Shown here: in pieces, positions 18,838 through 36,225 of the stretch
How positions within the stretch are numbered: the first letter of the stretch is position 1
Layout of the letters: each line of letters starts with the position of its first letter
NCBI GenBank assembly: GCA_903911135.1
Contig: CAIWCG010000178.1
Span: 1 to 47,707 of the forward strand
Source of the DNA: an uncultured Bacteroidota bacterium
Lineage (GTDB): Bacteria; Bacteroidota; Bacteroidia; AKYH767-A; JABDAW01
Length of the DNA stretch: 47,707 bases
Direction: 5' to 3'
Made by a program: the position numbers and the translations under genes
The notes under the pieces: generated by a model
The model's database searches: none
The model's input: only the letters and a program-made list of their open reading frames with translations
Told to the model about the DNA's origin: nothing

Positions 18838-19260
18838 ATGGCAGATATCTTCGACAAGGAAACACGGAGCTATGTGATGTCTCGCATACGCAGCAAAGAT
18901 ACCAAACCCGAACTCCTGGTTCGAAAGTATTTTTTCTCTCAAGGCTTTAGGTATAGATTGCATGAAAAGAAGTTGCCCGGCACACCTGATATCACTTTAC
19001 CCAAGTACCATACCGTGATTTTTGTGCATGGATGTTTCTGGCATGGCCACAAGAACTGTAAATATGCCTGCATTCCAAAAACCAGAACGGAGTTTTGGAT
19101 GAATAAAATTGCGCGCAATAAAATGAATGACCGAACGAACATCAAACTTCTCAAATCTCTTGGTTGGCAGGTGCTGGTGATTCATGAATGCCAACTAAAG
19201 AAAGATAAAATCAACAGGTCATTGAAAAAAATAGTAGAGAAGATCAATCAAAGACTTTAA
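18838..19260 (+). CDS. vsr: Very short patch repair endonuclease Vsr
   Basis: RS.VMSRIRSKDTKPE, LPGTPD, FVHGCFWHGH. Confidence 0.93.
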   Translation: MADIFDKETRSYVMSRIRSKDTKPELLVRKYFFSQGFRYRLHEKKLPGTPDITLPKYHTVIFVHGCFWHGHKNCKYACIPKTRTEFWMNKIARNKMNDRTNIKLLKSLGWQVLVIHECQLKKDKINRSLKKIVEKINQRL

Positions 19261-20084: not shown

Positions 20085-21458
20085 TCATAAATACGATCCA
20101 AGGAAATCTCGATACCACTTGCCAGACTCCTTGATTATTCTCTCTTGTGTTTTAAAATCCACATAAACCATTCCGAATCGCTGACGATACCCTTCAGCCC
20201 ATTCAAAATTATCAGTAAGCGACCAAACAAAATATCCTGAAATGGAATATCCATCCTGTTTCGCTTGTAGTACCTGTTCCATGTGTAATTGCAAATAATG
20301 TTTTCTGTCCTTATCATCCACCAACGTGCCAATTAGTTCATCTGGAAACGATGCCCCATTTTCTGTAATGATTAGCTTTTTAATTCCTTTGTAGCCATTA
20401 TATTTTTTAATCATCTCATACATTGCCTCTGGATAAACCTCCCAATTCATCAAGGTATGATACACTTTTCGCTTATCTGCGGGCACCAGTTTGGCTTTCA
20501 AAAATGGGATAAAGAAACTATGTTTTACCACTTCGCGAGTATAGTTTTGAATGCCTATGAAATCAAAATCAGCTTTCATCAATTCCTCGTCACCCTTATG
20601 CATGTATTTTTTGATTTTTTTCAAAAAAGGTATTTCATCTATGGGATATCCAAGGCCAAGAGAAGGTTCTAAAAAGCAATTGTTCAGCAAGGCATCGATT
20701 CTCTTTGCAGCACTTTTATCTTTTTCAGAATTGGAATACGGAGTGATATAAGAGCCTGAAAAGGTGGAACCCACTTCTGCATCCGGTTGTATTTTCTTAA
20801 TTGTTTTAAAACCGATTCCCTGGCACAATACCGCATGATGCATGGCTGCAAGAAAGTTGGAGAAACCTTTTCTGCCTGGGGCATGAACTCCGAGATAATA
20901 TCCGGCACCAGTGAATCCCAAAGGTTCATTGAGTACCATCCAGTACTTTACTTTATCCTTAAATGCATTCACGCAAACTTCTACATATTCCTTAAACCAA
21001 TGAATGATATCCCTATTCGTCCAACCACCTTTCTTTTCAAGGGCAAGAGGTAAATCCCAATGATATAAGGTAATCCATGGCACTATGCCCAATTCCAGAC
21101 AATAATCAATGACCTTATGATAAAATTCCAATCCTTTTTCGTTAATGGCTCCTACGCCTTCAGGTAAAATCCTTGACCATGAAAAGGAGAACCTGAAATT
21201 TGGAATTCCCAATTCCTTAATCAATTCGATATCCCTTCGATAGTCCTTATAAAAGTCACAGGCAACTTCATGGGTATCATTATTATGAATTTTATTTTTC
21301 TTTGAAGTGAACTCATCCCAGATCGATAATCCCTTCCCATCGATATTTATTGAACCTTCCGTCTGAAGCGCAGAAGTGGAAATGCCCCAAACGAAATCTT
21401 GGCCAAAATCCTCTTTGGTAAAAGCAATGGGAAGGTCTGAATGATTCTTTTTATGCAT
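20085..21458 (-). CDS. Glycoside hydrolase family 1 beta-glucosidase
   Basis: FRFSFSWSRI, TLYHWDLP, catalytic NEP and TENG motifs, DNFEWAEG. Confidence 0.93.
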   Translation of the reverse strand: MHKKNHSDLPIAFTKEDFGQDFVWGISTSALQTEGSINIDGKGLSIWDEFTSKKNKIHNNDTHEVACDFYKDYRRDIELIKELGIPNFRFSFSWSRILPEGVGAINEKGLEFYHKVIDYCLELGIVPWITLYHWDLPLALEKKGGWTNRDIIHWFKEYVEVCVNAFKDKVKYWMVLNEPLGFTGAGYYLGVHAPGRKGFSNFLAAMHHAVLCQGIGFKTIKKIQPDAEVGSTFSGSYITPYSNSEKDKSAAKRIDALLNNCFLEPSLGLGYPIDEIPFLKKIKKYMHKGDEELMKADFDFIGIQNYTREVVKHSFFIPFLKAKLVPADKRKVYHTLMNWEVYPEAMYEMIKKYNGYKGIKKLIITENGASFPDELIGTLVDDKDRKHYLQLHMEQVLQAKQDGYSISGYFVWSLTDNFEWAEGYRQRFGMVYVDFKTQERIIKESGKWYRDFLGSYL

Positions 21459-21509
21459 CCTGTTTTGACAATAATGTAAAAGCGAAGCTGATGAAAATGT
21501 TTGAAAGGA

Positions 21510-22553
21510 TTATTTATGAAATAGGTTGTAGTGCTGTGATTCAAATTCGGTATCCAACAACTTTTTTCCAGCATGGTTTTCTATAATAGTATCTACTATC
21601 TCATTAGTCTGATCGGGATAATCCACCTCCACGATATTTGTGTCATTTAGCCAATCTTCCAATTTATCATGATACTTTTCTTTTAGTTTTTTCATGACTG
21701 GAACTCCCATACTTTTTAGCATCGCTGCATTGCAATGTTGTTCATATTGAGTTTTCATAGGGATTACCAATAACTTTTTCTTCAAGAACAAGGCCTCACT
21801 TGCAGTACCGAAGCCCGCATTGCAAAGAACACCCTTTGAGGAAGCCATGCTTTTCAGAAACATATCCTTGTCAATTGGAAGTATGGTGATGTTCTGGAAT
21901 TTATAATTCTCCGTATAATGCTTGCTGAACACCACCCAATTGATATCCTTGAACTTTCGCAGATTCTTTATGATTCGTTCATCATCATAAGAGGGCAAAT
22001 AAACGGTATAATGCCCTTGATTGGTAGGTTTCAGCTTTCTCACTTCCTTGCGGATTATGGGTGTATAAATATTCTTATCGAGACTTTTAAAATGAAAGCC
22101 ATAGTTGTAGTTTGTTGGAGCATAATTGCGCAGGATTATTTTTCCCAATACATCCTTCTTTTTGGTTTCAGGTGCCAGAGGGTGTAGTGTCGCCACCTGA
22201 TTACTCAAACCGATGCAGGGCTTTTTCGCTTTTATGCAAGCCCATGATGTAACTGGTTCAAAATCGCTGATGATAAGGTCATATTGTTCCACATCCAGCG
22301 ACTTGATTTCTTTGTACAATTTCCTCGAATTTATTTTCCAATACGTTCTCCATAAATCCAATCCACCTTGCTTTCCAAAGATAAAGGAAAGTCCCCTGAA
22401 TTTGTATTTAACATCAAAAGGCAATTCAATATCATTCTGGATACCGCTAATGAGAATATCCAAATCTCCCTTTTTCTGAAGATAGGGAATTATTTCCATC
22501 GCCCTTGTGATATGGCCATTTCCGGTGCCTTGCACCCCATAAAGTATCTTCAT
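21510..22553 (-). CDS. GT-B glycosyltransferase (MJ1255/VC2487-like)
   Basis: MKILYGVQGTGNGHITRA, ISDFEP, NAGF...SEAL, QYEQ..NA. Confidence 0.88.
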   Translation of the reverse strand: MKILYGVQGTGNGHITRAMEIIPYLQKKGDLDILISGIQNDIELPFDVKYKFRGLSFIFGKQGGLDLWRTYWKINSRKLYKEIKSLDVEQYDLIISDFEPVTSWACIKAKKPCIGLSNQVATLHPLAPETKKKDVLGKIILRNYAPTNYNYGFHFKSLDKNIYTPIIRKEVRKLKPTNQGHYTVYLPSYDDERIIKNLRKFKDINWVVFSKHYTENYKFQNITILPIDKDMFLKSMASSKGVLCNAGFGTASEALFLKKKLLVIPMKTQYEQHCNAAMLKSMGVPVMKKLKEKYHDKLEDWLNDTNIVEVDYPDQTNEIVDTIIENHAGKKLLDTEFESQHYNLFHK

Positions 22554-23428
22554 GATAAATCAAAAGTTTTATTACCCACTATTTTAAATTCACCAAGCAT
22601 CTGTTTGAAAATTTCATCATCCGACATCATCACCAAACCTTCCTCCTCTTCCTGTTCGCTCTCCTTAAAGTCATTTTCATTATATCTGAACAAAGTCCAT
22701 TTGCCATTCAAATATTCCAAAGCTGTGAGGTTCTCTATCCAATCGCCAGAGTTTAGATATTCTACCTGCCCTTTCTCCGTTTTTATGGTTTTCATTTCCG
22801 GATGGTGGATATGTCCGCATAATACATAATCATAACCATTCTCTATGGCTATATCCGCTGTGGTAGTTTCGAAATCATTCAAGAATTTCACTGCCGACTT
22901 CACGCTATTCTTTATAGTTTTCGATAAGGATATCTTCCCTCTCCCCATCTTAACCGAAATCCAATTGCAAAGGGTATTGATAAGAATCAATAGGTCGTAA
23001 CCATGCGAACCAAGCTTGGTAAGCCATTTCGAATGCTTCATTGTTACATCAAAAACATCACCATGAAATATCCAAGTCTTCTTGCCATCCAAGTCCAACA
23101 GCAATTTATTGTCTATTACCAACGAACCCATCTTGAAACCTGCAAATTTCCGAAGCATCTCATCATGATTTCCTGTGATATAATAAACCTTGGTTCCTTT
23201 GCTGATCCATTTTATCAGAATTTGAATGACACCCATGTGCGATTTCGGCCAGTAGCGTTTCCTGAACTGCCACATGTCTATGATATCGCCATTGAGAATC
23301 ACCATCTTGGGCCTTACGCTTTTCAGGTATTTCATCAGTTCTATGGCATGGCAGCCATAAGTCCCCAAATGAATATCCGATAGCACCAGAATATCCACTC
23401 TCCTTTTCTTTTTTTTAGTCTTTTCCAT
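22550..23428 (-). CDS. UDP-2,3-diacylglucosamine diphosphatase-like metallophosphoesterase (LpxH/LpxH2 family)
   Basis: SDIHLG, NGDIID, GNHD, HGD, CGHIH, NSGDWIE; ATGA overlap with the GT gene. Confidence 0.88.
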   Translation of the reverse strand: MEKTKKKKRRVDILVLSDIHLGTYGCHAIELMKYLKSVRPKMVILNGDIIDMWQFRKRYWPKSHMGVIQILIKWISKGTKVYYITGNHDEMLRKFAGFKMGSLVIDNKLLLDLDGKKTWIFHGDVFDVTMKHSKWLTKLGSHGYDLLILINTLCNWISVKMGRGKISLSKTIKNSVKSAVKFLNDFETTTADIAIENGYDYVLCGHIHHPEMKTIKTEKGQVEYLNSGDWIENLTALEYLNGKWTLFRYNENDFKESEQEEEEGLVMMSDDEIFKQMLGEFKIVGNKTFDLS

Positions 23429-23657
23429 AAAATAATCTTATTGGTAATTGTTCCATAGTGTATGCTGAATCGTCATTCCTGATCGGGTAATCTATCTTGT
23501 CCACACAAAACCATTCCATACTCTTAAATTCTTTGCTATCAATGTCATTCTGTAAGGAGACATTAAGGGTGGAGGATGCTTTGATGAACTGCCGAGTGGT
23601 TTTTATATGTGTTAGCGTATTTATCAAAATTATCCAATGCAAAAATACCCCTGCCAT
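23415..23657 (-). CDS. Possible small hypothetical protein
   Basis: 80-aa ORF overlapping the start of the LpxH-like gene; no motif. Confidence 0.25.
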   Translation of the reverse strand: MAGVFLHWIILINTLTHIKTTRQFIKASSTLNVSLQNDIDSKEFKSMEWFCVDKIDYPIRNDDSAYTMEQLPIRLFYGKD

Positions 23658-23822
23658 CGAAAGAAATGATTAAGCCAATGTAAATTTTATGTTAACGATG
23701 ATATGGATGATGAAATATTTCGTTCGTAGGGTCAGGGTCAAAAAGAAAAACAAGAAATTTCATGGGACCATTAATGTTCATACTTTTTACTGGCCTGACA
23801 AGTAGGTTAAGCAACTCTCCCA

Positions 23823-24581
23823 CTACCTCCACCGTTTATACCAAGGTTTCTTGACAACGGTAATACCCACCTTTAGCATCAATTTGATGAATTCATAAGA
23901 TGTTATCGCACTGTATGCTAGCGTTGAGCCATCATTTATGTTGTGTGTTACTATCAACATGCCTATGAATTCTTTGGTTTTTGCACTGAAAACTGGGGAT
24001 CCGGCTTCCCGTTCAGGTTTCCCTTCAAAATGAATCGTTAAAGTCATGGTTCTATTCTTAGGATCCAAAATTTCAGGCTTATCGTAATTGCCCTCCGAAT
24101 TTTCAGATACAAATTGAGCGAGATGGTTAATGCCGCCCATGCCGTGATTGGTGCAATAATATTTCTCCAAGTTATGAGAACGGATGTTCAGCGTCCTGTT
24201 TTCCCAAGAATATCTCAAAGATACATTGTCCAGCGCATCCTTCAAACTTTCACAGTAAACGATTTCATTCAAATGCTTATAGTCCTTGCAACACTGAACC
24301 GGAGCTATGTCATACGACTGGCTTAAAACAATGAATGTGATGCCTACCTCCTGATATTCATAGATGTTTTCTGCCGTGAAAGGAATGCTGAAACCGTTTA
24401 TCAAGATGAAACATTTGCAATATTTCAAGTTATTTTCCGGCTTTATCGATAGTGCGTTTACACCCTGATGGGCACAAGCAATGATGTTTTTGGTCACAAA
24501 AAAGCATTCCGAAAGCGAAGTTACCATAGGCTCCCTTTCACCTATCGCCTTATAGCTAAGTTTTAAAATCAGCCCTGTCAT
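23823..24581 (-). CDS. Hypothetical protein, degenerate trypsin-like fold
   Basis: IACAH (TxxH-like) and EAGSPVF...FIGM (GxSGSPV-like, lacking the Ser); C-terminal KKPWYKRW. Confidence 0.55.
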   Translation of the reverse strand: MTGLILKLSYKAIGEREPMVTSLSECFFVTKNIIACAHQGVNALSIKPENNLKYCKCFILINGFSIPFTAENIYEYQEVGITFIVLSQSYDIAPVQCCKDYKHLNEIVYCESLKDALDNVSLRYSWENRTLNIRSHNLEKYYCTNHGMGGINHLAQFVSENSEGNYDKPEILDPKNRTMTLTIHFEGKPEREAGSPVFSAKTKEFIGMLIVTHNINDGSTLAYSAITSYEFIKLMLKVGITVVKKPWYKRWR

Positions 24582-24886
24582 GACGTGACTTCCTTTCGTA
24601 TCAAAAACAGGATATCATAAACCATTCTTTGCTTGACCGTTAAGCCTTCTACATGCAGAAAATTCGCTTCCATAATTAGGTATCTTTTTTAACCCTGCAT
24701 AATTACATTAATTGCGGGAGGTTTAGGTAATAATCTTGAATCTGTATCCATTTATTCCAGATGTGACTCATAGTCCGTTGTGAGATGAGTAAGGTGGGGG
24801 TGATTTTTATTAATTAAATTATGTGTAATTTTCCGCACCAGAATTTGAAGACCTCTTTGAATAAATAGATATTGATAAATGTTTAA

Positions 24887-25279
24887 TTGAGAATGATAAA
24901 TGTCGCATGTGCCATCATATTAAAGGATAATAAGTTTTTAGTTACTCAAAGAAGTGAATATATGAATCTGCCTTTAAAATGGGAATTCCCAGGAGGCAAA
25001 ATTGAGAAGGAAGAAACGGCTGAAGTTTGTTTGATGAGGGAACTAAAAGAGGAATTAAATATTGAAGTTGCCATTATTAAAAAACTCAACAATAATATTC
25101 ATGACTATGGTAATGTGGTGATAAATTTAATTCCATTTGTTGTGGAGTACATTTTAGGTGAAATAGTTTTATCCGAACATGCCTCATATCAATTACTGGA
25201 AAAAGATCAATTGCATTATTTGGATTGGGCAGAAGCTGATTTACCAATTTTAAAAGAATTAATTAACTCAAATATATGA
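24887..25279 (+). CDS. Nudix hydrolase (MutT-like dNTP pyrophosphohydrolase)
   Basis: WEFPGGKIEKEETAEVCLMRELKEEL Nudix box; ATGA overlap with the next gene. Confidence 0.92.
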   Translation: MRMINVACAIILKDNKFLVTQRSEYMNLPLKWEFPGGKIEKEETAEVCLMRELKEELNIEVAIIKKLNNNIHDYGNVVINLIPFVVEYILGEIVLSEHASYQLLEKDQLHYLDWAEADLPILKELINSNI

Positions 25280-28200
25280 ACCAAGGAATTTATGAGGAGT
25301 TAGTAACACAATTAGTTGCTACAAAATTAAATGAAATTGATAGGTCCAAATTTTATATCAAAGAAGTTAAAATTGATAAAGAAGAAGCCTCAAATATCCT
25401 TTCACAGCATTTGTCAAAAACAATAAAATATGCTCTATCAATTATTAAAGGTGACGACATAATAGAGCGTCAAATTGAAATTGCAAATAAAATTATCAAA
25501 TTATTAAAAGAGGAATTAAACCAAGTAGATTTTGATGATGATTTGGTAAGCATCGAAGGGAAAATACTAAAAGCGGTTTTCGAAAAAACAGATGCACATT
25601 TTTCCGATTTGGATTTGCATCTTAAAGAAATTACACCTTATACTAGACTAACCCATAGTGAATTATTTACAGGAGGGAACGTTGGCTTATCATTAGAAAG
25701 TGAATTAAAAAAAGAAATCCTATCATCAAACAGGATAGATTTATTGGTTTCATTTATAAAATGGAAGGGAGTTGTAATCCTTAAAAGTGAATTGGAAGAG
25801 TTTACAAAAAGAGGAGGGAAATTACGAGTTATTACAACGACATATATGGGTGCTTCGGATTACAAAGCTATCCTTGAATTATCAAAACTTGAAAATACCG
25901 AAGTGAAAATATCTTATAACAATGGAAATGAAAGGTTGCATGCAAAAGCATATTTATTTCATAGAAATACAGGTTATCATACAGGATATATAGGCTCGTC
26001 AAACTTTTCAAGGTCTGCCCTTACAGATGGATTGGAATGGAACATTAAAATAACAACCAATGAAGTAAGCCATATTATTGATAAGTTTCAAAAAACATTT
26101 GATGCTTATTGGTTGAATAAGGAGTTCGAATTATTTGATGAAATAAAAGATTCAGAAAAACTATTAGATGCACTTAAACAAAGTAAACTTTCAAAAAGTC
26201 AAAACAACACACTGGCATTTTTTGATTTGACACCACACCAATATCAAAAGGAAATTTTAGAAAAGTTAGACGTTGAAAGAAACGTACATGGAAGATATAG
26301 AAACTTAATAGTTGCTGCAACTGGAATGGGAAAAACCATTATTTCTGCCTTCGATTACAAGAATTTTCGACAAAAAAACAAATCATCAAAATTGTTATTT
26401 GTTGCACATCGAAAAGAAATTCTAACTCAATCAATGGCAACCTTTCAAGGAGTTTTAAAAGATAATAATTTTGGAGAATTATGGGTTGATGGTATTGTTC
26501 CTTCAAATTATGAATTTGTTTTCGCATCGGTTCAAACACTAAATAATAAGATTAAAGATTTATCACTTTCTCCAGAGTATTATGACTATATTATAATTGA
26601 TGAAGTGCATCATATTAAAGCTGCAAGTTATAGACCAATTATAAACTATTTTAAACCTAAAATACTTCTTGGATTAACAGCTACTCCAGAAAGGATGGAT
26701 GGAGGCGATATACTAGAAGATTTCTGCAATAAAATTGCTGCAGAAATCAGATTGCCTGAAGCATTAAATGGAAAACATTTATGCCCTTTTCAATATTTCG
26801 GAATATCTGATAGTATTGATTTATCAAATGTAGGTTGGGAGAAAGGCAGATATGTTGCAAGTGAATTAACAAAGTTGTATACATCAAATGATAGAAGGGT
26901 TAATGAAATCATTTTCAACTTAAATAAATATACTAAAGATATTAACGATTTAAGAGCACTATGCTTTTGCGTATCTATTGAACATGCGAAGTTTATGGCA
27001 GAAAAGTTTTCATTAGCTGGTTTAAAAGCAAATTGTTTGACTTCAGAAAACGATGTGGAACGCGAAGCTTTAAGAAAACAATTACAAATTAAAGAAATCA
27101 ACTATTTATTTGTTGTTGACATTTTTAATGAAGGAGTTGACATTCCTGAAATTGATACGGTTTTATTTTTACGCCCCACTGAAAGTCTAACCGTTTTCTT
27201 GCAACAACTTGGACGAGGATTAAGATTAGCTGAAGGCAAAGAAAACTTAACTGTTTTAGACTTTGTTGGGAATGCAAGACCAGAATACAATTTTGAGAAT
27301 AAATTTAGAGCATTAATTGGCAAAACAACGACCACAGTTCAGAAAGAGTTAGAGGATAATTTTCCTCATTTGCCATTGGGTTGTTCAATAATTTTAGAAC
27401 AAAAAGCAAAAGAAATAATATTGAAGAATATTATTTCTGCTACTACATTTAATAGAAACCAAATTATACAAAAAATTAGAAACTTTGAAAGCCAAACAAC
27501 CTTACCTCTCACTCTATATAATTTTTCTTCATTCTATAATATACCAATTCAAACAATTTACAGTAAATATAGAAAAGATAGTTGGAATAGGCTTCTGCAA
27601 TTAGCCGGTAAAATTGAAGCTTTTGAAAGCACTAATGAAAATCAAATTGTTTCAGCCATTCGTAATAAATGGCTTTCTACAAATTCATCTAGCTATTTCA
27701 ATTTTCTATTGAGAATTGCAAAGCAAAACTTTATTGTTGAATTAGAAAACTTTACAGAAGACGAAAAAACTATGCTTCTAATGCTTCATTATGATGTTTG
27801 GCAGAATGCAGGAGGTTTTCCAACATTAGAAGAAAGCATAAAGGAAATTGGGAGGAATAGCATTTTAGTTCAAGAGATCATTGAAGTATTACAAATTTTA
27901 TGTGATAAAATTAATTTCAAAGAAATTCATATTGAATTACCATTCAGCCAACCATTAAAACTACATGCGAGATATACAAGAGACCAAATATTAACAGCTT
28001 TCAAATTGAATACATTTGAGAATAAATCTTCTAATCGAGAAGGAGTTGCAGAAAATAAGAAAATAAATGTTGAAATGCTTTTTATTGACCTTATCAAATC
28101 AGAAGAAGATTATTCACCTACAACTATGTATGAAGACTATGCAATAAGCGATTTGCTGTTTCATTGGCAAAGCCAAAACTCCGCAAGGCCAGACAAAGGA

Positions 28201-28425
28201 AAAGGATTGTCCTATATTAACCATCTTGAGAATAATAAAATAATCCTGTTATTTGTTCGAGAAAAAGCAAATGATGAATTTGGAAGCACTATGGGTTATG
28301 TATTTATTGGAAATGCTAAAATTAAAGATTATCATGGATCAAAACCTATGAGTATAAATTGGGAATTAAATGAACCTATGCCACCTTATCTTTGGAAAGA
28401 TTCTGCGAAATTAGCTATAGGTTAA
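25276..28425 (+). CDS. PLD nuclease-SF2 helicase-DUF3427 protein (SauUSI-like type IV restriction enzyme)
   Basis: LHAK...GSSNFS...LEWN (PLD), AATGMGKT, DEVH, TATPER, QQLGRGLR, C-terminal Y.DY...FHWQSQN. Confidence 0.87.
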   Translation: MNQGIYEELVTQLVATKLNEIDRSKFYIKEVKIDKEEASNILSQHLSKTIKYALSIIKGDDIIERQIEIANKIIKLLKEELNQVDFDDDLVSIEGKILKAVFEKTDAHFSDLDLHLKEITPYTRLTHSELFTGGNVGLSLESELKKEILSSNRIDLLVSFIKWKGVVILKSELEEFTKRGGKLRVITTTYMGASDYKAILELSKLENTEVKISYNNGNERLHAKAYLFHRNTGYHTGYIGSSNFSRSALTDGLEWNIKITTNEVSHIIDKFQKTFDAYWLNKEFELFDEIKDSEKLLDALKQSKLSKSQNNTLAFFDLTPHQYQKEILEKLDVERNVHGRYRNLIVAATGMGKTIISAFDYKNFRQKNKSSKLLFVAHRKEILTQSMATFQGVLKDNNFGELWVDGIVPSNYEFVFASVQTLNNKIKDLSLSPEYYDYIIIDEVHHIKAASYRPIINYFKPKILLGLTATPERMDGGDILEDFCNKIAAEIRLPEALNGKHLCPFQYFGISDSIDLSNVGWEKGRYVASELTKLYTSNDRRVNEIIFNLNKYTKDINDLRALCFCVSIEHAKFMAEKFSLAGLKANCLTSENDVEREALRKQLQIKEINYLFVVDIFNEGVDIPEIDTVLFLRPTESLTVFLQQLGRGLRLAEGKENLTVLDFVGNARPEYNFENKFRALIGKTTTTVQKELEDNFPHLPLGCSIILEQKAKEIILKNIISATTFNRNQIIQKIRNFESQTTLPLTLYNFSSFYNIPIQTIYSKYRKDSWNRLLQLAGKIEAFESTNENQIVSAIRNKWLSTNSSSYFNFLLRIAKQNFIVELENFTEDEKTMLLMLHYDVWQNAGGFPTLEESIKEIGRNSILVQEIIEVLQILCDKINFKEIHIELPFSQPLKLHARYTRDQILTAFKLNTFENKSSNREGVAENKKINVEMLFIDLIKSEEDYSPTTMYEDYAISDLLFHWQSQNSARPDKGKGLSYINHLENNKIILLFVREKANDEFGSTMGYVFIGNAKIKDYHGSKPMSINWELNEPMPPYLWKDSAKLAIG

Positions 28426-28500
28426 ATAAAACCAGCTGCGAAGGATATGAAATCATTCGCCTACTCAATTGGATTTAAATTCTAATCAGTACCATTCCAC

Positions 28501-28552
28501 AACCTTCTTTTATTATCCTATGTTTGCATAGCTGAAAAGGGAGTAGGCATTT
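28501..28552 (+). promoter_or_regulatory. Shared promoter/leader, copy 1
   Basis: AACCTTCTTTTATTATCCTATGTTTGCATAGCTGAAAAGGGAGTAGGCATTT with TAnnTTTG box. Confidence 0.85.
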
Positions 28553-28580
28553 TACGATTATAAAAATAAACAAATAGAAT

Positions 28581-29186
28581 ATGCCTAAATGTATTGAATG
28601 CAGCAACATGACAACTTATGAAAATTGGCTTTGTTATTCTTGCTATCAAAAGAAACAAAAAAGTCATGTTTACACAGATAATCATCCTAGTGGGCTAAGT
28701 TACAATGATTGGATATTTCATTATAACATGATTAAAGGAAGGATTGCGGAAACTTTGATTCAGGAATTATTCCTACAACTGAAATTTAATGTGTATCGTT
28801 ATGGCATGGAAAATACCATTCCAGGAATAATGGAACTGCTTAGACATGATAATTCTTCTGTTGCAAGTTCCATTAGAAGCATGCCTGATTTTGTGATTCA
28901 AAATTCAACATCAAAAGAGATACGACTTTTAGAAGTGAAGTTTCGAGCAAATGGCTCTTTCAAAATCAATGAGTTGATAAAAAACTATCCTTGGGAGGAT
29001 GCGTATATAATCTTAGTTTCGAAGGTGAGCATCAAATGCATTACCTATAAGGAACTGAAAGAAGGAGGCGAGATAACTGCAACATCTGACAATCATCTTT
29101 ATGACCGCATTGAATTCAGTAACGATAAAGCGGTAATAATTGAATTTTGCAACTTTGCTACGAGATTCTTTGCTTGTGTAAATTAA
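28581..29186 (+). CDS. N-terminal Zn-finger plus PD-(D/E)XK nuclease-like protein
   Basis: CIEC...CYSC; KGRIAE; PDFVI...LLEVKFR. Confidence 0.7.
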   Translation: MPKCIECSNMTTYENWLCYSCYQKKQKSHVYTDNHPSGLSYNDWIFHYNMIKGRIAETLIQELFLQLKFNVYRYGMENTIPGIMELLRHDNSSVASSIRSMPDFVIQNSTSKEIRLLEVKFRANGSFKINELIKNYPWEDAYIILVSKVSIKCITYKELKEGGEITATSDNHLYDRIEFSNDKAVIIEFCNFATRFFACVN

Positions 29187-29261
29187 CACTGAACCTTTAT
29201 AGATTTTGCCTATGGATTATGGATTAAAATTTCTTGAGCCTTTGAAAAGTGAGCATTCATT

Positions 29262-29313
29262 AACCTTCTTTTATTATCCTATGTTTGCATAGCTGAAAAT
29301 GAAGTAGGCATTT
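29262..29313 (+). promoter_or_regulatory. Shared promoter/leader, copy 2
   Basis: AACCTTCTTTTATTATCCTATGTTTGCATAGCTGAAAATGAAGTAGGCATTT, 50/52 identical to copy 1. Confidence 0.85.
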
Positions 29314-29327
29314 ATATATAGAATGAA

Positions 29328-30596
29328 ATGAAAAAATTTAAAAGCGAAGAAGCAATAAGAAAAGCAATAGAGAAAAATCCTATGGATGCTGAATTATATT
29401 TTCAGCTTGGGGTATGGATATTTGAGAACGGCAAAGCACTGGACATAAATTATAGGCATAGAGCCATGGATGAATTCGATAAGGCCAAAGCCATCAATCC
29501 ACAAGAGGGGAAGTATCATTTTCATTATGGGCTATGTTCGATTGATATGGGAAACCCGGAAGCTACCACGAATGCGAGTTTCAATAAGGCCATCCATCTT
29601 GGATATAAGGTGGAGGAATGCAAGAGGCTGATGGCGGAAGCAAAAACAAAATATGATGCGGAGTATAAAAAGGCGCATGAGGACTATTTGGATAGGCTGG
29701 AAAAGGAAGTTGACGGCGCACATAAATTTGGTCAACTGGGTTCTCATTATTACTGGAAAGATAAAAAGAAGGCGATTGCTTTATTGGAGAGGGCCTTGGA
29801 ATTTGATCCTAATGATGGCAACGCAAATGTTTTGTTGGGCAGATATTATGGCGAACAGGGGGATATGGAAAAAGCATTGGAACATTTCAAAAGGGCGGGG
29901 GCTGATTCTCTTAAATATGGTTCTGGCTATCGTGATAACCACTATGATGAAATGGCCAGCATTTATGAGAAGAAGGAGGATTGGGAAAATGCCTTGATAT
30001 GGCGAAAGAAGGGGTATGAATTGTATCCTGATGAAATTTGGAATGCGCAGCAATATGGCATTCATTTATATAAATTTGAAAAGCAGGAAGAGGCTTTGGC
30101 TGTTTTCATGAAAATTCTTGAGATGAATCCTGAAGGCAGCAATACGTTTGTTTATACCCATCTTGCCTCGTACCACTCGAACAAAGGAGACATAGAAACC
30201 ACTTTGAAATACCTGCATGAGGGTTTGAAGTACAATGCTCAAAATTGGTTCTTTCATTTTAATCTGGGGCATATCCATGAATATACGAAGCAATATGATT
30301 TGGCAGAAAAGTTTTTTCTGAATGCTGTAGTTTATCGGTTGGATGATGATGCAGCCTATATTCGACTTGGGAAAATGAATTTGAGGGAAGATTATTTTGA
30401 CATAAAGAAAAGCAGGGATTATTTTGTGAAAGCTTTGGAAATAAATTCTTTAAATATAATTGCACATGAAAAGTTGAGTGAGATCTATATGGAACTAAAT
30501 GAACCAACAAAAGCCAAATATCATCAATCGAAAACGCAAGAGCTGCGAATTCAGGAATTATACCCTAACCCCAACAGCAAGGATTTTCTTGCCTAA
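29328..30596 (+). CDS. Tetratricopeptide repeat protein
   Basis: Repeated LG..Y...G...KA...F.RA and ALE.DP/NP patterns; no signal peptide. Confidence 0.88.
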   Translation: MKKFKSEEAIRKAIEKNPMDAELYFQLGVWIFENGKALDINYRHRAMDEFDKAKAINPQEGKYHFHYGLCSIDMGNPEATTNASFNKAIHLGYKVEECKRLMAEAKTKYDAEYKKAHEDYLDRLEKEVDGAHKFGQLGSHYYWKDKKKAIALLERALEFDPNDGNANVLLGRYYGEQGDMEKALEHFKRAGADSLKYGSGYRDNHYDEMASIYEKKEDWENALIWRKKGYELYPDEIWNAQQYGIHLYKFEKQEEALAVFMKILEMNPEGSNTFVYTHLASYHSNKGDIETTLKYLHEGLKYNAQNWFFHFNLGHIHEYTKQYDLAEKFFLNAVVYRLDDDAAYIRLGKMNLREDYFDIKKSRDYFVKALEINSLNIIAHEKLSEIYMELNEPTKAKYHQSKTQELRIQELYPNPNSKDFLA

Positions 30597-30624
30597 TATG
30601 GCGAACACGCCACCATTCTCCACA

Positions 30625-30663
30625 TATCCTATCTTTGCATAGCTGAAAAGGGGGTAGGCGTTT
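30625..30663 (+). promoter_or_regulatory. Shared promoter/leader, copy 3
   Basis: TATCCTATCTTTGCATAGCTGAAAAGGGGGTAGGCGTTT, 36/39 identical to the matching part of copy 1. Confidence 0.8.
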
Positions 30664-30693
30664 GGGGATAAAAAGAAACAAATAATTTAGATT

Positions 30694-32463
30694 ATGGCTA
30701 AAAGATATACCATTGATGACATGCAGGAGTATGCCAAAGATAAGGGGGGACTGTGCATGAGCAAGGAATACGTCGATTCGATCTCTCCCTTGAAATGGCG
30801 ATGTGAAAAGGGCCATACCTGGGATGCCGACTTTGAAATCATCAGGCAGGGTGGGTGGTGCCCGCAGTGCTTGAAGAAAGAACACGACATTATCGAACGA
30901 TTTGAGAAGATAAAAGCCATTGCCATTGCAAAAGGAGGAAAATGTCTATCCACGGAATTCATTAACATGAAGGAAAAATTGGATTTTGAATGTGCTGAAG
31001 GGCATAGATGGAGTGTTGCCCCAGGTGGAATATTAAATAATAATCAATGGTGCAGCAAATGTGCATATAAAAAATTGGGGATGAATTCAAGGGACCCAAT
31101 TGAGATGTTTCAAAAAATAGCAGCCGATCATGGAGGGAAATTACTATCTCTAACCTATTCAGGAAGTAGAGATAAATTGCTTTGGGAATGCAAGGAAGGT
31201 CATCAATGGTATGCCAATGCATTTTGTATAAAGAGAATTAAAACATGGTGTCCTGAATGTTCAGGAAAACTCCCTCTAACTATTGAGGATATGAAAAATG
31301 ATGCTGCCAAGCATGGAGGTGAATGCCTTTCAACCGAGTATCTTGGTGTTAGCAAACAATTGAAATGGAAATGCTCGGAAGGGCATGTTTGGATGGCAAA
31401 ACCAAATAATATCCGTTCAGGTAACTGGTGCGACATTTGTGCACATAAAAGAATTGGAGACTTTCATAGAGACAATATAGAGACCTTTCATGAAATTGCG
31501 AAAAAACGGGGAGGAAAATGCCTATCAACAACGTATGTTAGGAATCTATACAAATTGGAATTTGAATGCTCGGAAGGTCATAGATGGAAAGCAGCACCCA
31601 TTGGAATAAAAAACATGAATAACTGGTGCCCAAAATGTGCTCGCGTTTCTTGTGGCATAAAAAACAGGGAAGATATAGCCATATATCATAAAATTGCCAA
31701 AGAACGTGGAGGGCGATGCTTGGAATTTACTTATAAAGGAAACCGTGTAATTATCAAACTTGAATGTGCGGAAGGACATAGTTGGACTATAGAAGGTCAT
31801 GCAATCAAACAAGGGAACTGGTGTTTCAAGTGTGCCCATAAACGAATTGCTGCAAAACAATTTGACACCATCGAAACATTTCATGCCATAGCAAAGGAAA
31901 ATGGGGGTAAAGTTCTGTCGAAGGAATATGTCAGTAGTCTTACAAAAATGGAATTTCAATGTTCAGAGGGACATGTTTTTTGGGCTTCGGCATCCAACAT
32001 TAAAAATAATCGTCTTTGGTGTATCATTTGCAATAAAATAAAGAGGGATAAACCAAAGAATAAAATTGAAAGATTCAAACAATTGGCGATTGAAAAAGGT
32101 GGCAAGTGTTTATCGGAGGTATGTTATAATACCCATGATAAACTGGATTGGGAATGTGCAGAAGGGCATAGATGGACAGTATCAGGGAAAGGCATAGTAT
32201 GCGGAAACTGGTGCAAGAAATGTGCTAGTAAATCAAATGCCATGAAACAATTTGACACCATCGAAAATATTCAGGAAATAGCGAAGAAGCATGGAGGAAA
32301 ATGCTTGTCGGAAGTTTATGTAAACAACACAACAAAGATGAAGTTTCAATGTTCGGAAGGGCATATTTGGATGTCTACTGCAGGCAATATTAAAAACCAT
32401 CCTACTTGGTGTGTTGTATGCAATAAGAATAACAAGAAAAAATCATTAAAACCAAAGATTTGA
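30694..32463 (+). CDS. Protein of nine tandem zinc-ribbon repeats
   Basis: Nine ~64-aa units GGKCLS..Y......L.W/F.C..GH.W......I....WC..C; no other domain. Confidence 0.85.
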   Translation: MAKRYTIDDMQEYAKDKGGLCMSKEYVDSISPLKWRCEKGHTWDADFEIIRQGGWCPQCLKKEHDIIERFEKIKAIAIAKGGKCLSTEFINMKEKLDFECAEGHRWSVAPGGILNNNQWCSKCAYKKLGMNSRDPIEMFQKIAADHGGKLLSLTYSGSRDKLLWECKEGHQWYANAFCIKRIKTWCPECSGKLPLTIEDMKNDAAKHGGECLSTEYLGVSKQLKWKCSEGHVWMAKPNNIRSGNWCDICAHKRIGDFHRDNIETFHEIAKKRGGKCLSTTYVRNLYKLEFECSEGHRWKAAPIGIKNMNNWCPKCARVSCGIKNREDIAIYHKIAKERGGRCLEFTYKGNRVIIKLECAEGHSWTIEGHAIKQGNWCFKCAHKRIAAKQFDTIETFHAIAKENGGKVLSKEYVSSLTKMEFQCSEGHVFWASASNIKNNRLWCIICNKIKRDKPKNKIERFKQLAIEKGGKCLSEVCYNTHDKLDWECAEGHRWTVSGKGIVCGNWCKKCASKSNAMKQFDTIENIQEIAKKHGGKCLSEVYVNNTTKMKFQCSEGHIWMSTAGNIKNHPTWCVVCNKNNKKKSLKPKI

Positions 32464-32532
32464 GATCGAATCGCAAGGAACGTTTGTCTAATTATCGGTA
32501 ATTAAAGTTTATGTTTAGCTTGAAAAAGCTCT

Positions 32533-32657
32533 TTCGAAGCAACCTGCCGTCAATCAGCCCCGATAGTAGCGGCAGCCCGCTGCTTTGTATCGGCAATGAG
32601 GATGCAGCGGATAGCGGGACTGGCCATGATACGAGAAGAAACCATAGGCTCCTTATT
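32533..32657 (+). repeat. Dispersed structured repeat copy 2
   Basis: Same core as 7076; lacks the 9-bp CTACAGCGG. Confidence 0.9.
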
Positions 32658-32691
32658 AAAAATGCTAAAAGCAAGCGGGAATTGGGACGGA

Positions 32692-33534
32692 TTATTCGCC
32701 GAGATGGAACAAGGTGAGCCCGGCAATGGGTGTTTCGATGATGCGACCTACCGTAATGCCCTTTTCTTTGGCGGCATATTTCAGGATGTCGGAGAAATAA
32801 AAGGCTATCGAGCCGGTGAAATTGCAGGGAACTTCTTGGTGGCGCGAATATTTGCAGACTTGATATTGGAAGAAATCGCGGAAGCAGCGATGGATGATGT
32901 CGGAGATGAAGGGATGGTTGTGATGCCTCAACAGAAATGGAACGAAGGAGGCGAAATAGCGGTTTTGGTAGGGCTTGCCATAGTGGTCGTCCAAGAATTT
33001 CTCTCTAGTAAGCTGGTAGGTTCCGAAGAACATTTCGTGGAGTTCCTTGGGCAGCTCCTCCTCGAAATAATGCTTCAAAAAGGTTTTGCCCAAATGTGCC
33101 CCGCTGCCATCATCGCCTATGACAAAACCCAAGGAAGGGACATTCTCGAGCACTTCCTTGCCATCATAATAGCATGAATTGGAACCGGTGCCAAGGATGG
33201 CGGCTATACCTGCATCGTGGCCACATAAGGCTCGGGCAGCTCCTAGCATGTCGTGGTTGACATCTATAACGGCGTTCTTGAAATTGTTTTGCAAGGCCTG
33301 CTGGATGATGTTCTTGTTTTCATCGGAGGAACAACCGGTGCCGTAATAATGAATCTCGTTCACCGCATCTGCTTCAAGGTTTGGAACCAGGGTTTGTTTT
33401 ATTTCGTTGGTAATGTCTTCCATCGACTGAAAGAACGGACTGATGCCGTTGCTTCGTAGCTGATGTATCTTTCTGTCGTTATCCTGCAGTCTCCAATCGG
33501 TTTTGGTAGCACCGCTGTCAGCAATCAAAATCAT
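32692..33534 (-). CDS. BadF/BadG/BcrA/BcrD-type N-acetylglucosamine kinase
   Basis: MILIADSGATKTDW, ILGTGSNS, GDDGSGA, FTGSIA; likely start at 33534. Confidence 0.88.
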   Translation of the reverse strand: MILIADSGATKTDWRLQDNDRKIHQLRSNGISPFFQSMEDITNEIKQTLVPNLEADAVNEIHYYGTGCSSDENKNIIQQALQNNFKNAVIDVNHDMLGAARALCGHDAGIAAILGTGSNSCYYDGKEVLENVPSLGFVIGDDGSGAHLGKTFLKHYFEEELPKELHEMFFGTYQLTREKFLDDHYGKPYQNRYFASFVPFLLRHHNHPFISDIIHRCFRDFFQYQVCKYSRHQEVPCNFTGSIAFYFSDILKYAAKEKGITVGRIIETPIAGLTLFHLGE

Positions 33535-33535
33535 C

Positions 33536-34447
33536 TTATTCGGTTGAAAACGTTTCACCTTCTATGGCCAGCCAGGTGTTCTTGAATTCTGATTCGGCTT
33601 CTTTCAACATGGTATTCAGTTCCTTGTATCTTGCTGAGAAATGCCCGATGAGCAACTTTCCCACCTTGGCTTTGGTAGCCATCATGCCTGCCTGCTTGCT
33701 GGTGGTATGAAAGGTTTCCATCGCCCGTTCTATCAAGTCGTGAGTAAAAGTGGATTCATGATAAAGCATATCTATTCCGGTAATCTGCTCCAATATCCTT
33801 TCATCATAAAGCGTATCAGAACAATAGGCATAACTTCTGGCAGTATGAGACTGAATGGTGATTTCATTGTTCGGAATCATCTTGCCATTGAAATTATAAT
33901 CCTCCCCGCTCTTGATGGCATGCAGCGCTGAAACGGGGATGTTATATTTCTCCACCATCTCCCTAATGAGTTTCCGTGGCTTCCTCTTTTCCTTGAACAA
34001 AAAACCGGTACATGGAATGCGATGATTTAGGATGATGGTTTCTATCGTCAATTGGTCGTCTTCGAATATGACTTCACTCTTTTCGGCATTGGTATAATGG
34101 TAGATGACGGGATAGCGCAACGTGGTTTGGGAATATTTCAACTGGATATCGATTATTTCTTCCAATTCTTTGGCTGCATAAATGTGAAGTTCTTTGGTTC
34201 GGCCTTGCAGATGCATGGTGGACATGAGCCCCATCAATCCAAGGTAATGATCACCATGAAGATGCGAAATGAATATCCTGTTGATGCGATGATACTTGAT
34301 TTTGTATCGCTCCATCTGTATTTGTGTTCCTTCTCCACAATCAATCAAAAAAAACCGCTCAAGTATGTTTAGAACTTGAGCGGATGGATGTCGTTGATAT
34401 GAAGGAGATGCAGAACTGCTTCCCAATATCGTTACTTCAAAGGTCAT
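33536..34447 (-). CDS. rnz: Ribonuclease Z
   Basis: LIDCGEGTQ, SHLHGDH, AYCSDT, HESTF, GHFSARY. Confidence 0.95.
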   Translation of the reverse strand: MTFEVTILGSSSASPSYQRHPSAQVLNILERFFLIDCGEGTQIQMERYKIKYHRINRIFISHLHGDHYLGLMGLMSTMHLQGRTKELHIYAAKELEEIIDIQLKYSQTTLRYPVIYHYTNAEKSEVIFEDDQLTIETIILNHRIPCTGFLFKEKRKPRKLIREMVEKYNIPVSALHAIKSGEDYNFNGKMIPNNEITIQSHTARSYAYCSDTLYDERILEQITGIDMLYHESTFTHDLIERAMETFHTTSKQAGMMATKAKVGKLLIGHFSARYKELNTMLKEAESEFKNTWLAIEGETFSTE

Positions 34448-35202
34448 TATTTTGCGGTGACAATCATTCTTTTGGTGATGGTTTGAATGCCATTTGATAA
34501 ACTGTACATATAAATTCCTGGAGCCAACTCCTTAGAATTGATGAACACCTGGTTCATTCCAGTTTTTGCATCATAAGTTCTGTTCATCACTGTTGATCCA
34601 AGAACATTGAAAACTTTCAAGTTTACTTTACCGCTCATTGCAGATGAGTAATCTATTTCAGTAGTTCCATTGAATGGATTTGGTGCATTTTGATATACGT
34701 CAAATTTCGCTGGACCAACTAGGGTTGGCACTCCGGCATGAGATGCACTGTCGATAACAATTCTGTAGCCTCTTACTGTGTCAGCAATTGGAATTGTAAA
34801 AGAAGCATAAACCACATGAGCAGTCATTACTACTGTAAGTGGATAAGTTCCTGCCATACCATCGGTAGCTGTTCCAGAAATATGGAAACAACCAGCCGTT
34901 CCTCCTGGGAAAACACAATTGGTAGGTACACAAGCATAAGAGAATCCTGCTGGCAATCCCATTACGCTTGTCAATGTGAAATCGGTGATTGGAACTGCTG
35001 TTAATAAATAGGTGGTGTCATGTGTAACAAAGATCTGAATATCTGCCGTATATGGAATCGTAGCTACACAGATAGGTAAATTGATAGTTGTGTCAGGATT
35101 AATGTGGCTTGCAGGGCCAGTCAGGTTTGGGGTGCACTGTGCTGTAATCGTATTGCAGGCAAACGTACAGGCACATAAGATAATAAGTAGGATTTTGTTC
35201 AT
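34447..35202 (-). CDS. Small secreted T9SS type A sorting-domain protein
   Basis: Signal peptide; QNAPNPF...VFNVLG...LAPGIYMY...KRMIV. Confidence 0.85.
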   Translation of the reverse strand: MNKILLIILCACTFACNTITAQCTPNLTGPASHINPDTTINLPICVATIPYTADIQIFVTHDTTYLLTAVPITDFTLTSVMGLPAGFSYACVPTNCVFPGGTAGCFHISGTATDGMAGTYPLTVVMTAHVVYASFTIPIADTVRGYRIVIDSASHAGVPTLVGPAKFDVYQNAPNPFNGTTEIDYSSAMSGKVNLKVFNVLGSTVMNRTYDAKTGMNQVFINSKELAPGIYMYSLSNGIQTITKRMIVTAK

Positions 35203-35269
35203 ATCGTATAGTTTTTATTGTTTATAATGCGGCAAAATTAAGTTATTTCTCTGAATTGACAATGAAAAA

Positions 35270-35653
35270 TTATTCCTCATCGCTGGCATTGGCCAGTTCG
35301 CGCTCCACTTCTTCCATATATATAAGGTCGGTGGCCTCCGAAATGCTTGGAACGATGGACAGCACCTTATCGAGCTGGCTGATGGTGATGATTCGTTTCA
35401 CGTTCACCTTCAATCCTACCAAAACAAAGCTGCCTTTGGCTTTCTTGCAGAGCTTGTTGCCTATCAATATGGCGCTTAATCCGGATGAATCGCAGTAGCT
35501 CACTTCGCTCAAATCGAGGATGATATTGCGTACGCCATCCTGGTTCATAGCCACTATCTGTGATTTCAAATCCGAGGAGATGAGTTCGTTCAACTTGTCG
35601 TCTTTAAGTTTCAGGATGCTGTATTTGTCTTTGTTTTCGATAGTATATTTCAT
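35270..35653 (-). CDS. STAS-domain anti-sigma factor antagonist
   Basis: ILDLSEVSYCDSSGLSA. Confidence 0.92.
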   Translation of the reverse strand: MKYTIENKDKYSILKLKDDKLNELISSDLKSQIVAMNQDGVRNIILDLSEVSYCDSSGLSAILIGNKLCKKAKGSFVLVGLKVNVKRIITISQLDKVLSIVPSISEATDLIYMEEVERELANASDEE

Positions 35654-35792
35654 CGTATGTTACTTTTTTGGTACTGCAATATTAAGGAATTAATTTCAAT
35701 CATCCAAAAATATTTGCATTTTTCTGCATTTTCTCCCAACCCAAGGCCTCTAAAATGCGTCTATCCTTAAGTAGTAGGGGTAAAAAACGACA

Positions 35793-35821
35793 AGCCCTCG
35801 AATGGGTCTCACTCGAGGGCT
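35793..35821. other. Intergenic hairpin
   Basis: AGCCCTCGA-11 nt-TCGAGGGCT. Confidence 0.5.
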
Positions 35822-35924
35822 GCTGTTTTGGATTTGCTTTAGACCGTATCGCGTTTTTAAGCTTAAAAAATAGTAATTTAGCTTAAATCCCTTCTAATGG
35901 AAAGAAGTAATGTTGTCTTGAAGT

Positions 35925-36225
35925 CAAAATCTGTTTCAACACACTTTGACTCCGTTGTGACACATTTTGGTTCTGTTCGAACAAACTCCGGTTTCGTTCG
36001 AACAAACTCCAGGTTTGTTGCCAACGAAACCAAGTTTCAAGGGAAGAAACGGCATTTTGTTCTCCTGAAAACCATTTTCGTTCGAACGAAACCCAACCTT
36101 GTTCGAACGAAACCAAAATGTGTCGCGACATACTTTGACGTTTCGAAGCTACATTTTGAGTTCGTTTGAACAGAAATCGCTTTCGTTCGAACGGAATCCG
36201 TTTGCGTTCGAACAGAGTTGAACTT
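35925..36225. repeat. Degenerate tandem repeat, 21-bp period, about 14 units
   Basis: Palindrome GTTCGAAC at 35975, 35996, 36080, 36101, 36185, 36206; variants in register at 35933, 35954, 36017, 36059, 36122, 36164. Confidence 0.88.

Follow-up and report, generated by a model that had tools for sequence, protein, structure and literature searches.

The repeat and the genes behind it

Contig CAIWCG010000178.1 of an uncultured Bacteroidota bacterium, 47,707 nucleotides (nt) long and referred to here in its full length as the window, carries three unrelated genes in a row behind a type IV restriction locus, each of them directly preceded by a copy of the same repeat. The source genome (G000), which according to the run records comes from lake water, comprises 3.8 Mb in 296 contigs and is 98% complete, and the window is its contig C178. 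An earlier note made from the letters of this stretch had described the repeat as a promoter or leader of ~50 bp and had proposed either a co-regulated module or a cassette-like array of captured genes. The copies of the repeat, called module copies below, and the three accessory genes are as follows.

28493..28580, + strand: module copy 1; -7 box TATGTTTG at 28519-28526, predicted start 28531, 50-nt leader
28581..29186, + strand: P0001, 201 amino acids (aa); N-terminal CxxC...CxxC zinc ribbon and predicted PD-(D/E)xK nuclease core (PDF...EVK)
29254..29327, + strand: module copy 2; -7 box TATGTTTG at 29280-29287, predicted start 29292, 36-nt leader
29328..30596, + strand: P0002, TPR protein, 422 aa; Pfam TPR families
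30604..30693, + strand: module copy 3; -7 box TATCTTTG at 30630-30637, predicted start 30642, 52-nt leader
30694..32463, + strand: P0003, 589 aa; about nine treble-clef zinc-ribbon DUF4379 repeats (Pfam DUF4379, 1.4e-15)

The three copies were observed consistently by pattern search, repeat finder and blastn-short. The pattern TATCCTATSTTTGCATAGCTGAAAA, allowing up to 3 mismatches, matches exactly 3 times in the window and not once in 100 dinucleotide-preserving shuffles, and the core TATCCTAT[G/C]TTTGCATAGCTGAAAA occurs at 28514, 29275 and 30625, always on the + strand. The repeat finder delineated a 60-nt family with 28493-28552 as reference, 29254-29313 at 92% and 30604-30663 at 75%; by blastn-short, copies 1 and 2 agree over 52 nt at 96.2% (50/52) and copies 1 and 3 over 35 nt at 94.3%. 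From the end of GGCRTTT to the ATG there are 28, 14 and 30 nt in copies 1, 2 and 3, respectively. Thus the earlier note was right about the copies before the starts at 28581, 29328 and 30694, about the 50/52 identity and about the 14-30 bp spacing, and its ~50 bp needs correction only in length, since copies 1 and 2 share 60 nt. A second block, an A-rich leader reaching up to the ATG (ATAAAAA[T/G]AAACAAA ... TAGA[A/T]TATG), is common to copies 1 and 3, as had also been noticed; its alignment score of 32 is reached by none of 2000 shuffles, the best of which scores 31. The likeness of copies 1 and 2 farther upstream (GCCTA...TGGATT[T/A]AAATT) is marginal, with 70 of 2000 shuffles reaching its score. 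The homology between copies is therefore a mosaic, common to copies 1 and 2 from -38 to +22 and to copies 1 and 3 from about -20 to the ATG. A repeat stands before each gene and none after the last.

All three copies contain a -7 box, TAnnTTTG, at 28519, 29280 and 30630. The -7 box of flavobacterial sigma-A promoters spans -12 to -5, as given in an excerpt of PMC9723704, which places the starts at ~28531, 29292 and 30642 and the conserved 22 nt (GCTGAAAA-G/T-G-R-R-GTAGGC-R-TTT) at +1 to +22. Judged by its letters, and with start sites that are predictions, the repeat combines a promoter with the beginning of the transcript, extending in copies 1 and 3 over the entire leader. The genome has 4743 TAnnTTTG sites, and at the 1521 that precede an open reading frame (ORF) of at least 100 codons the information is limited to the box and the C that follows it. 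Because the genome-wide signal consists only of the box and one C, the other ~50 shared bases reflect common descent; the conserved stretch exceeds a promoter consensus, as the earlier note had argued. Two parts are specific to this locus, the ~25 bases before the box and the 22 bases with which the transcript would begin. Shuffled sequences fold as well as the leader RNAs (z -0.38, -0.18 and +0.47). Between 28400 and 30750 no Rfam family was found at E<=1 save two chance-level rows, and no terminator-like site was found on the + strand between the genes. In the copy 1 leader, UAGGCAU is the exact complement of the start-codon region of P0001, AUGCCUA (28543-28587), and the two are paired in the minimum-energy fold; a single G-G mismatch interrupts this pairing in copy 3, and copy 2 lacks it.

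A search of the whole genome, as the earlier note had proposed, found the module at exactly three places, all at this locus. By pattern with 3 mismatches the motif occurs in 0 of 40 relatives, and the 122-nt module gave no significant BLAST match in 20 relatives, only short ones at E>=0.002; both sets, like those searched for P0001, P0003-like genes, the restriction pair and the C194 module, include G018, an unpublished genome that matches neither the motif nor the genes and on which alone no claim depends. The module pattern also had no match in GTDB (one genome per species), JGI metagenome contigs or IMG/VR (genome_contigs, metagenome_contigs and viral_contigs), where exact matching of one degenerate pattern would miss diverged copies. 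A generic promoter of the kind that precedes housekeeping genes, which the earlier note had named as the outcome that would undo its proposal, is rejected on the 3 of 3 genome matches at this locus, the 0 of 40 relatives and the genome profile of box and C only. The feature is real, private to this locus and more than a promoter consensus.

The genes behind the copies are sporadic. P0001 was observed in 3 of 40 relatives and P0003-like genes in 8 of 40, and P0002 has a homologue in 1 of 145 other genomes of the order (E<=1e-30, 30% identity). None of the three loci with P0001 homologues elsewhere carries the module, nor do the two loci with TPR homologues at 71-78% identity from a metagenome search; each has other upstream sequence. 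In the relative G014 the NUDIX and restriction pair that precedes the three genes here is present at 72% identity without them, and its homology ends at the end of the restriction gene. The module-free homologues, the sporadic genes and the pair standing alone in G014 together indicate that the module belongs to the locus in this lineage and not to the genes. The three proteins have no significant pairwise BLASTP similarity (best 36 aa at E 0.007, P0001 against P0002), which bears out the earlier description of them as unrelated, and their genes differ in GC content, 32% versus 37-41%.

P0001 has 1792 homologues at E<=0.001, at identities of up to 60% and mostly in Bacteroidota, none with a Pfam domain or a name, and is thus a member of a large unnamed family of predicted nucleases; the family also has an archaeal cluster (Atlas). 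Among 19 aligned members 71 positions are invariant, among them E57, D103, E118 and K120. The structural model has a pLDDT of 83; Foldseek matches it best, though weakly (E 5e-3), to Hjc resolvases, and the Atlas leads point to Hjc/Endonuc_Holl as well. We predict a zinc ribbon joined to an Hjc-like PD-(D/E)xK core. P0001 has no Pfam, NCBIfam, PHROG or PADLOC model, and PADLOC has no match for P0002 or P0003 either; in NCBIfam, P0002 gives only generic TPR rows below cut-offs and P0003 two chance-level rows. The repeat finder resolved four internal repeat families in P0003 (D1, D2, D4 and D5). Its repeat region matches the endonuclease families phrog_681 and phrog_559, which we read as a likeness to the putative DNA-binding part of those endonucleases, and Pfam detects no nuclease domain in it.

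The islet formed by these genes has the following features on its two sides.

24887..25279, + strand: NUDIX hydrolase gene, which opens the restriction pair (Pfam NUDIX 8.3e-16; PADLOC PDC-S07 2.8e-47)
25276..28425, + strand: type IV restriction enzyme, 1049 aa (Pfam PLDc_2, ResIII, Helicase_C, DUF3427; PADLOC mREase_IV 6.9e-225)
32552..32625, + strand: Flavo-1 repeat element at the end of the islet (Rfam RF01705; 45 bits, gathering score 42)

The assignment of the upstream locus to type IV restriction holds: the PADLOC mREase_IV model spans residues 119-1045 of the enzyme, and Pfam detects the domain set. The GC content of the restriction gene is 29-31%, versus 38-46% in the flanks. Core genes start right behind the Flavo-1 element, and synteny with G001, of the same genus, begins at ~32690. 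The left flank is not syntenic with G001-G003, so an empty site is not definable from relatives. Pfam scans of the ORFs found no integrase, phage or conjugation genes in the rest of the window, which is ordinary chromosome, and the earlier statement that the window lacks an integrase is in line with the absence of any PF00589 match on the contig.

The window has six Flavo-1 elements (7096, 32552, 41368, 44819, 45150 and 47618), and at the one at 32552 the summed contig depth in public run X1 is 1845, versus ~9-14 for its neighbours. The genome is extremely repeat-rich, with 149,916 matches in a self-BLAST; many of its repeats form tandem arrays whose period is a multiple of 21 nt (63, 84, 126), beside dispersed elements of ~140 nt. 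A gene for a Vsr very-short-patch-repair endonuclease (18838-19260, Pfam 5.5e-36) adjoins a DciA gene, and the Pfam scan of the ORFs around it found no cytosine methyltransferase.

Strain variation in the islet

Contigs of four public runs (X1-X4, of which X1 may be the source of the window and X2 belongs to another study) were compared with the window over 21000-36000. In one X2 contig (record 11), 4702 nt long, the parts that match the window are 26921-28467 and 29254-29850, and 2559 other letters separate them, a pattern indicating that 28468-29253 has been replaced, that is, 786 nt comprising copy 1, P0001 and 67 nt behind P0001. The restriction gene and the TPR gene are retained on this contig. 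The match resumes at 29254, the first base of copy 2, which is also where the likeness of copy 2 to copy 1 begins.

28468..29253, strand not assigned: strain-variable segment (X2 bridging contig; X4 contig stops at 28467)

In X4, too, the match of a contig ends at 28467, with 114 letters running on. The depth over 28515-29015 is 0 in X3 and 0.27 in X4, with no bridging contig there, and these depths are not used as evidence.

The divergence of X2 is 2.4-3.7% in the core flanks, 5.5-7.6% in the restriction gene (7% in its 3' part) and ~15% in copy 2 and the 5' end of the TPR gene; the P0003 gene differs by 0.6%, being 99.4% identical, whereas its neighbours differ by 7-15%. Copy 3 is covered by an X3 contig (30563-31681) with 6 other letters in 1119. 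An X2 contig has 16 letters instead of 23695-24745, a segment that contains a 252-aa ORF of no known family (23823-24581, - strand), and we regard this ORF, missing in X2, as another strain-specific insertion, located shortly before the restriction pair. The mosaic divergence of X2 and the missing ORF mark the islet as a recombination hot spot. Inside the P0003 gene an X3 contig goes back by 417 nt (31392 to 30976), which suggests a change in repeat number or recombination between internal repeats.

Readings of the repeat

The reading that we favour, and that we hold to be about evenly poised between right and wrong, is that a private expression module has been copied before genes that were acquired singly in a strain-variable defence islet, the copies acting as patches of homology. 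Each module would consist of a sigma-A promoter, ~25 nt upstream of it and the first 22 transcribed bases, with an A-rich leader besides in copies 1 and 3, and the islet, between the mobile NUDIX and type IV restriction pair and the core genes, would hold three independently acquired genes. Each copy would give its gene a transcription start of its own and the same 5' end, from which we infer that the three would be expressed alike. Genes would be added one by one through recombination within the module, either by integration of a circle carrying module and gene or by allelic replacement with the module as one homology arm. Host general recombination would carry this out without a dedicated recombinase, and the copies would be promoters and at the same time joints for gene gain, loss and replacement. 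Taken one by one, these roles differ in strength: the copies probably switch the three genes on, and they may also mark sites of gene exchange.

Several observations weigh against this reading. The recombination role of the module rests on a single junction, namely the one bridged strain-level junction, which was seen in assembled contigs and whose 2559 inserted letters are unread. Its left break at 28467 lies 25 nt before copy 1 and outside any copy, and plain allelic replacement via flanking homology explains X2 equally well. The contigs of the four runs contain no copy-to-copy deletion joint and no circle, although contigs cannot show rare forms. As to expression, promoter activity and start sites are predicted from the letters, and the TTG of the -33 element, which lies ~19-21 nt upstream of the box, is absent in all three copies (CATTCCACAAC, CATTCATTAAC and CACGCCACCAT); the profile of the 1521 genome sites has no -33 signal either. 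Furthermore, no conserved terminator or stem-loop stands beside the promoter, where folds are no better than shuffles, unlike in the phage repeats compared below. The cassette idea of the earlier note thus fares unevenly: the swap of 28468-29253, with the match resuming at copy 2, supports it, whereas the notion of the repeat as a recombination site finds no hairpins, no recombinase nearby and one junction.

A last point against copying as the whole account is the conservation within copy 3. This copy is the oldest and most diverged, keeping only about half of the 26 bases upstream of the box, yet it keeps 24 of the 26 bases from -4 to +22, which could mean selection on an operator rather than a recombination boundary. 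Under such a shared-operator or regulon reading, the stretch from -4 to +22, possibly with a CTATG-N4-CATAG dyad over the -7 box, would be bound by a single regulator or RNA-binding factor and kept identical by selection for joint control of the three defence-type genes; the history of duplication would be incidental. Repressor operators usually overlap the start site, as this stretch would, and all three genes stand behind the restriction system. A site of three copies, however, would call for a regulator of its own, and neither the islet nor its immediate neighbourhood has a gene for one: the 252-aa, 80-aa and 58-aa ORFs have no Pfam match. The arms of the dyad are 5 bp long and broken in copy 3, and by our estimate its frequency is about that of chance; the leaders fold like shuffles, and the three genes do not co-occur elsewhere. 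We consider this reading rather unlikely, and it is compatible with the module being a copied homology patch.

Tandem accretion is a good deal less probable. Here the repeats would be att remnants of a recombinase encoded elsewhere or lost, left by successive insertions in the promoter region of a resident gene. Direct repeats do bound each unit, one unit differs between strains, and two mobile-element-type integrases of ~480 aa are encoded elsewhere in the genome. However, the units are single genes of 0.8-1.9 kb without integrase or excisionase; the repeat, at least 60 nt long and a near-complete promoter, has no short conserved core; and in X2 and X4 the break on the left falls beyond the repeat. 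Nor does any copy adjoin one of the five tyrosine recombinase genes (PF00589) of the genome, none of which is on the contig.

We regard as very improbable an integron-like array, whether a CALIN or an Xer-type array such as rAID-1, in which each repeat would be an attC-like site with a promoter in it by coincidence. Single-stranded DNA folds of the three intergenic regions, computed for both strands, are no better than shuffles (z -1.21 to +1.00), and attC-like folding is not supported. R' and R'' boxes (GTTRRRY / RYYYAAC) were not seen by eye in the repeats. The repeat stands 5' of each gene with none after the last, and the gene heading the array is a type IV restriction enzyme, not a XerD-family recombinase. 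The two Xer-size recombinases of the genome, on C12 and C23, have housekeeping-like neighbourhoods (rpsU/hpf and aroQ, judged by eye from the N-termini of neighbours). The absence of hairpins and of a recombinase on the contig argues against an integron, a CALIN and an rAID-1-type Xer-headed array alike. In addition, an excerpt of the IntegronFinder 2.0 preprint reports a complete integron in Bacteroidetes only from Salinibacter ruber.

Phase-variable promoters flipped by an invertase at short inverted repeats (GCCTAC..GTAGGC), as in capsule and surface-protein loci of Bacteroides, where the inverted repeats measure ~10-30 bp and both orientations occur in the population, are hardly credible here: GCCTACTC / GAGTAGGC (8 bp), TGCCTA / TAGGCA (6 bp) and GCCTA / TAGGC (5 bp) do bracket copies 1, 2 and 3, but these arms are very short with only 5 bp common to the three copies, no invertase gene lies nearby, all three promoters face their genes, and the contigs of the four runs, though contigs drop rare forms, have no strand-changing joint.

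Sister loci and known systems

A search for sister loci within the genome, in which TAnnTTTG sites were aligned on the box and grouped when they lay on the same contig, at most 10 kb apart and with at least 72% identity over 72 flanking positions, gave eight local families. Four of them stand before non-homologous genes, namely those of this locus and of contigs C194, C16 and C47, with a different module at each. On C194 the three units are a 472-aa protein, a nucleotidyltransferase/HEPN pair and an aspartyl-protease-like gene, and on C16 the module precedes a YoeB toxin-antitoxin pair and a 140-aa gene. The family on C2 precedes tandem paralogues, and for those on C214, C143 and C254 no ORF qualified within 120 nt downstream of the box. 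The modules of C194, C16 and C47 resemble that of C178 in being locus-specific, in bearing TAnnTTTG and in preceding non-homologous accessory or toxin-antitoxin genes, although their sequences differ.

The C178 module is confined to its locus, unlike the C194 module, which is older and more widespread, with five copies in the genome, of which C194 has four and C30 one, and further copies in both genomes of the same genus. In one of these, G002 (C61:9689-10034), three tandem C194-type copies with no gene between them stand before a small two-gene pair, which, read by eye, is a putative antitoxin with a MazF-like toxin. The C194 module (G000:C194:42860-45885) is ~75-130 nt long, with a CCGG-TTTT-CCGG hairpin core and the TAnnTTTG box at its end, and has no Rfam match; an AAA_15/AbiEii-type ATPase gene lies close to its copies in the same stretch. 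At C244:617-1963 three copies of a 65-nt imperfect palindrome, TCATCGTCGTGTTGCAGCAGCC...GGCTGCTATCACACAACGATGA, separate ParE-type toxin-antitoxin genes, lying at the 3' ends of these genes; in appearance they come closer to attC than the C178 repeat.

With these loci in mind we suggest, tentatively and as something more doubtful than the reading of the single locus, that bacterial chromosomes use private promoter/leader modules as portable patches of homology, by which defence and toxin-antitoxin genes would be captured without a recombinase, at no fewer than four loci in this genome. If so, a gene arriving behind a copy would be expressed at once, and genes between copies could be looped out, passed on and re-inserted. 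How single genes are gained or swapped in defence islands without transposases or integrases is poorly understood, and promoter modules that act as joints would explain both the expression of foreign genes on arrival and variation at fixed intergenic points. C178 and its three sister loci offer a concrete place for a test in a free-living lake bacterium, and the module itself is a candidate compact expression signal for Bacteroidota.

Among known systems, the locus is like integron arrays and CALINs in that co-oriented, unrelated and strain-variable genes are separated by repeated sequence. Integron cassettes as a rule are promoterless and end with attC. Unlike in integrons and CALINs, there are no hairpin sites and no IntI here, and the repeat stands 5' of the genes and bears a promoter.

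The rAID-1 arrays of Bacteroidales, as described in an excerpt of Ross et al. (bioRxiv 10.1101/471110), have a XerD-family recombinase at their head and up to 31 immunity genes. With these, so far as the excerpt goes, our locus has in common the Bacteroidota host, an array of accessory defence-type genes, repetitive intergenic sequences and a skewed GC content; it differs in having no recombinase on the contig, three genes and no immunity-gene homologue by Pfam, PADLOC and NCBIfam. Lambdoid morons, as they appear in an excerpt of PMC2839356, are likewise single added genes with a promoter each, but the promoters of morons are unrelated and no shared sequence bounds them, whereas here the promoter sequence is one and the same.

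The closest likeness is to the promoter-early stem-loops (PeSLs) of the T4-type phages RB49 and phi1, which an excerpt of their description presents as promoter-bearing repeats of ~100 bp that flank ORFans, mark insertions and deletions between close relatives, and recombine to release mini-circles by looping out, with no recombinase known (Arbiol et al. 2010, PMC2839356). Compared with this excerpt, the module differs in lying on a bacterial chromosome and not in a phage, in having three copies versus ~50, in being private to one locus, in lacking a stem-loop or terminator part and in having a promoter of the Bacteroidota -7 type. As for strain differences, those between relatives of the phages map to the repeats, and here there is one replacement, in X2, which ends on the right at the first base of copy 2 and on the left 25 nt ahead of copy 1. 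For cellular organisms, the 2010 authors state in the excerpted text that there was no evidence yet of PeSL-type plasticity (PMC2839356). As in the PeSLs so described, unrelated orphan or accessory genes of a hyperplastic region each have a promoter repeat of ~60-100 nt immediately in front; the repeat supplies expression signals to the gene that lands behind it, and no dedicated recombinase is known. By this analogy, the module is probably a chromosomal variant of the regulatory-cassette principle of T4-type phages.

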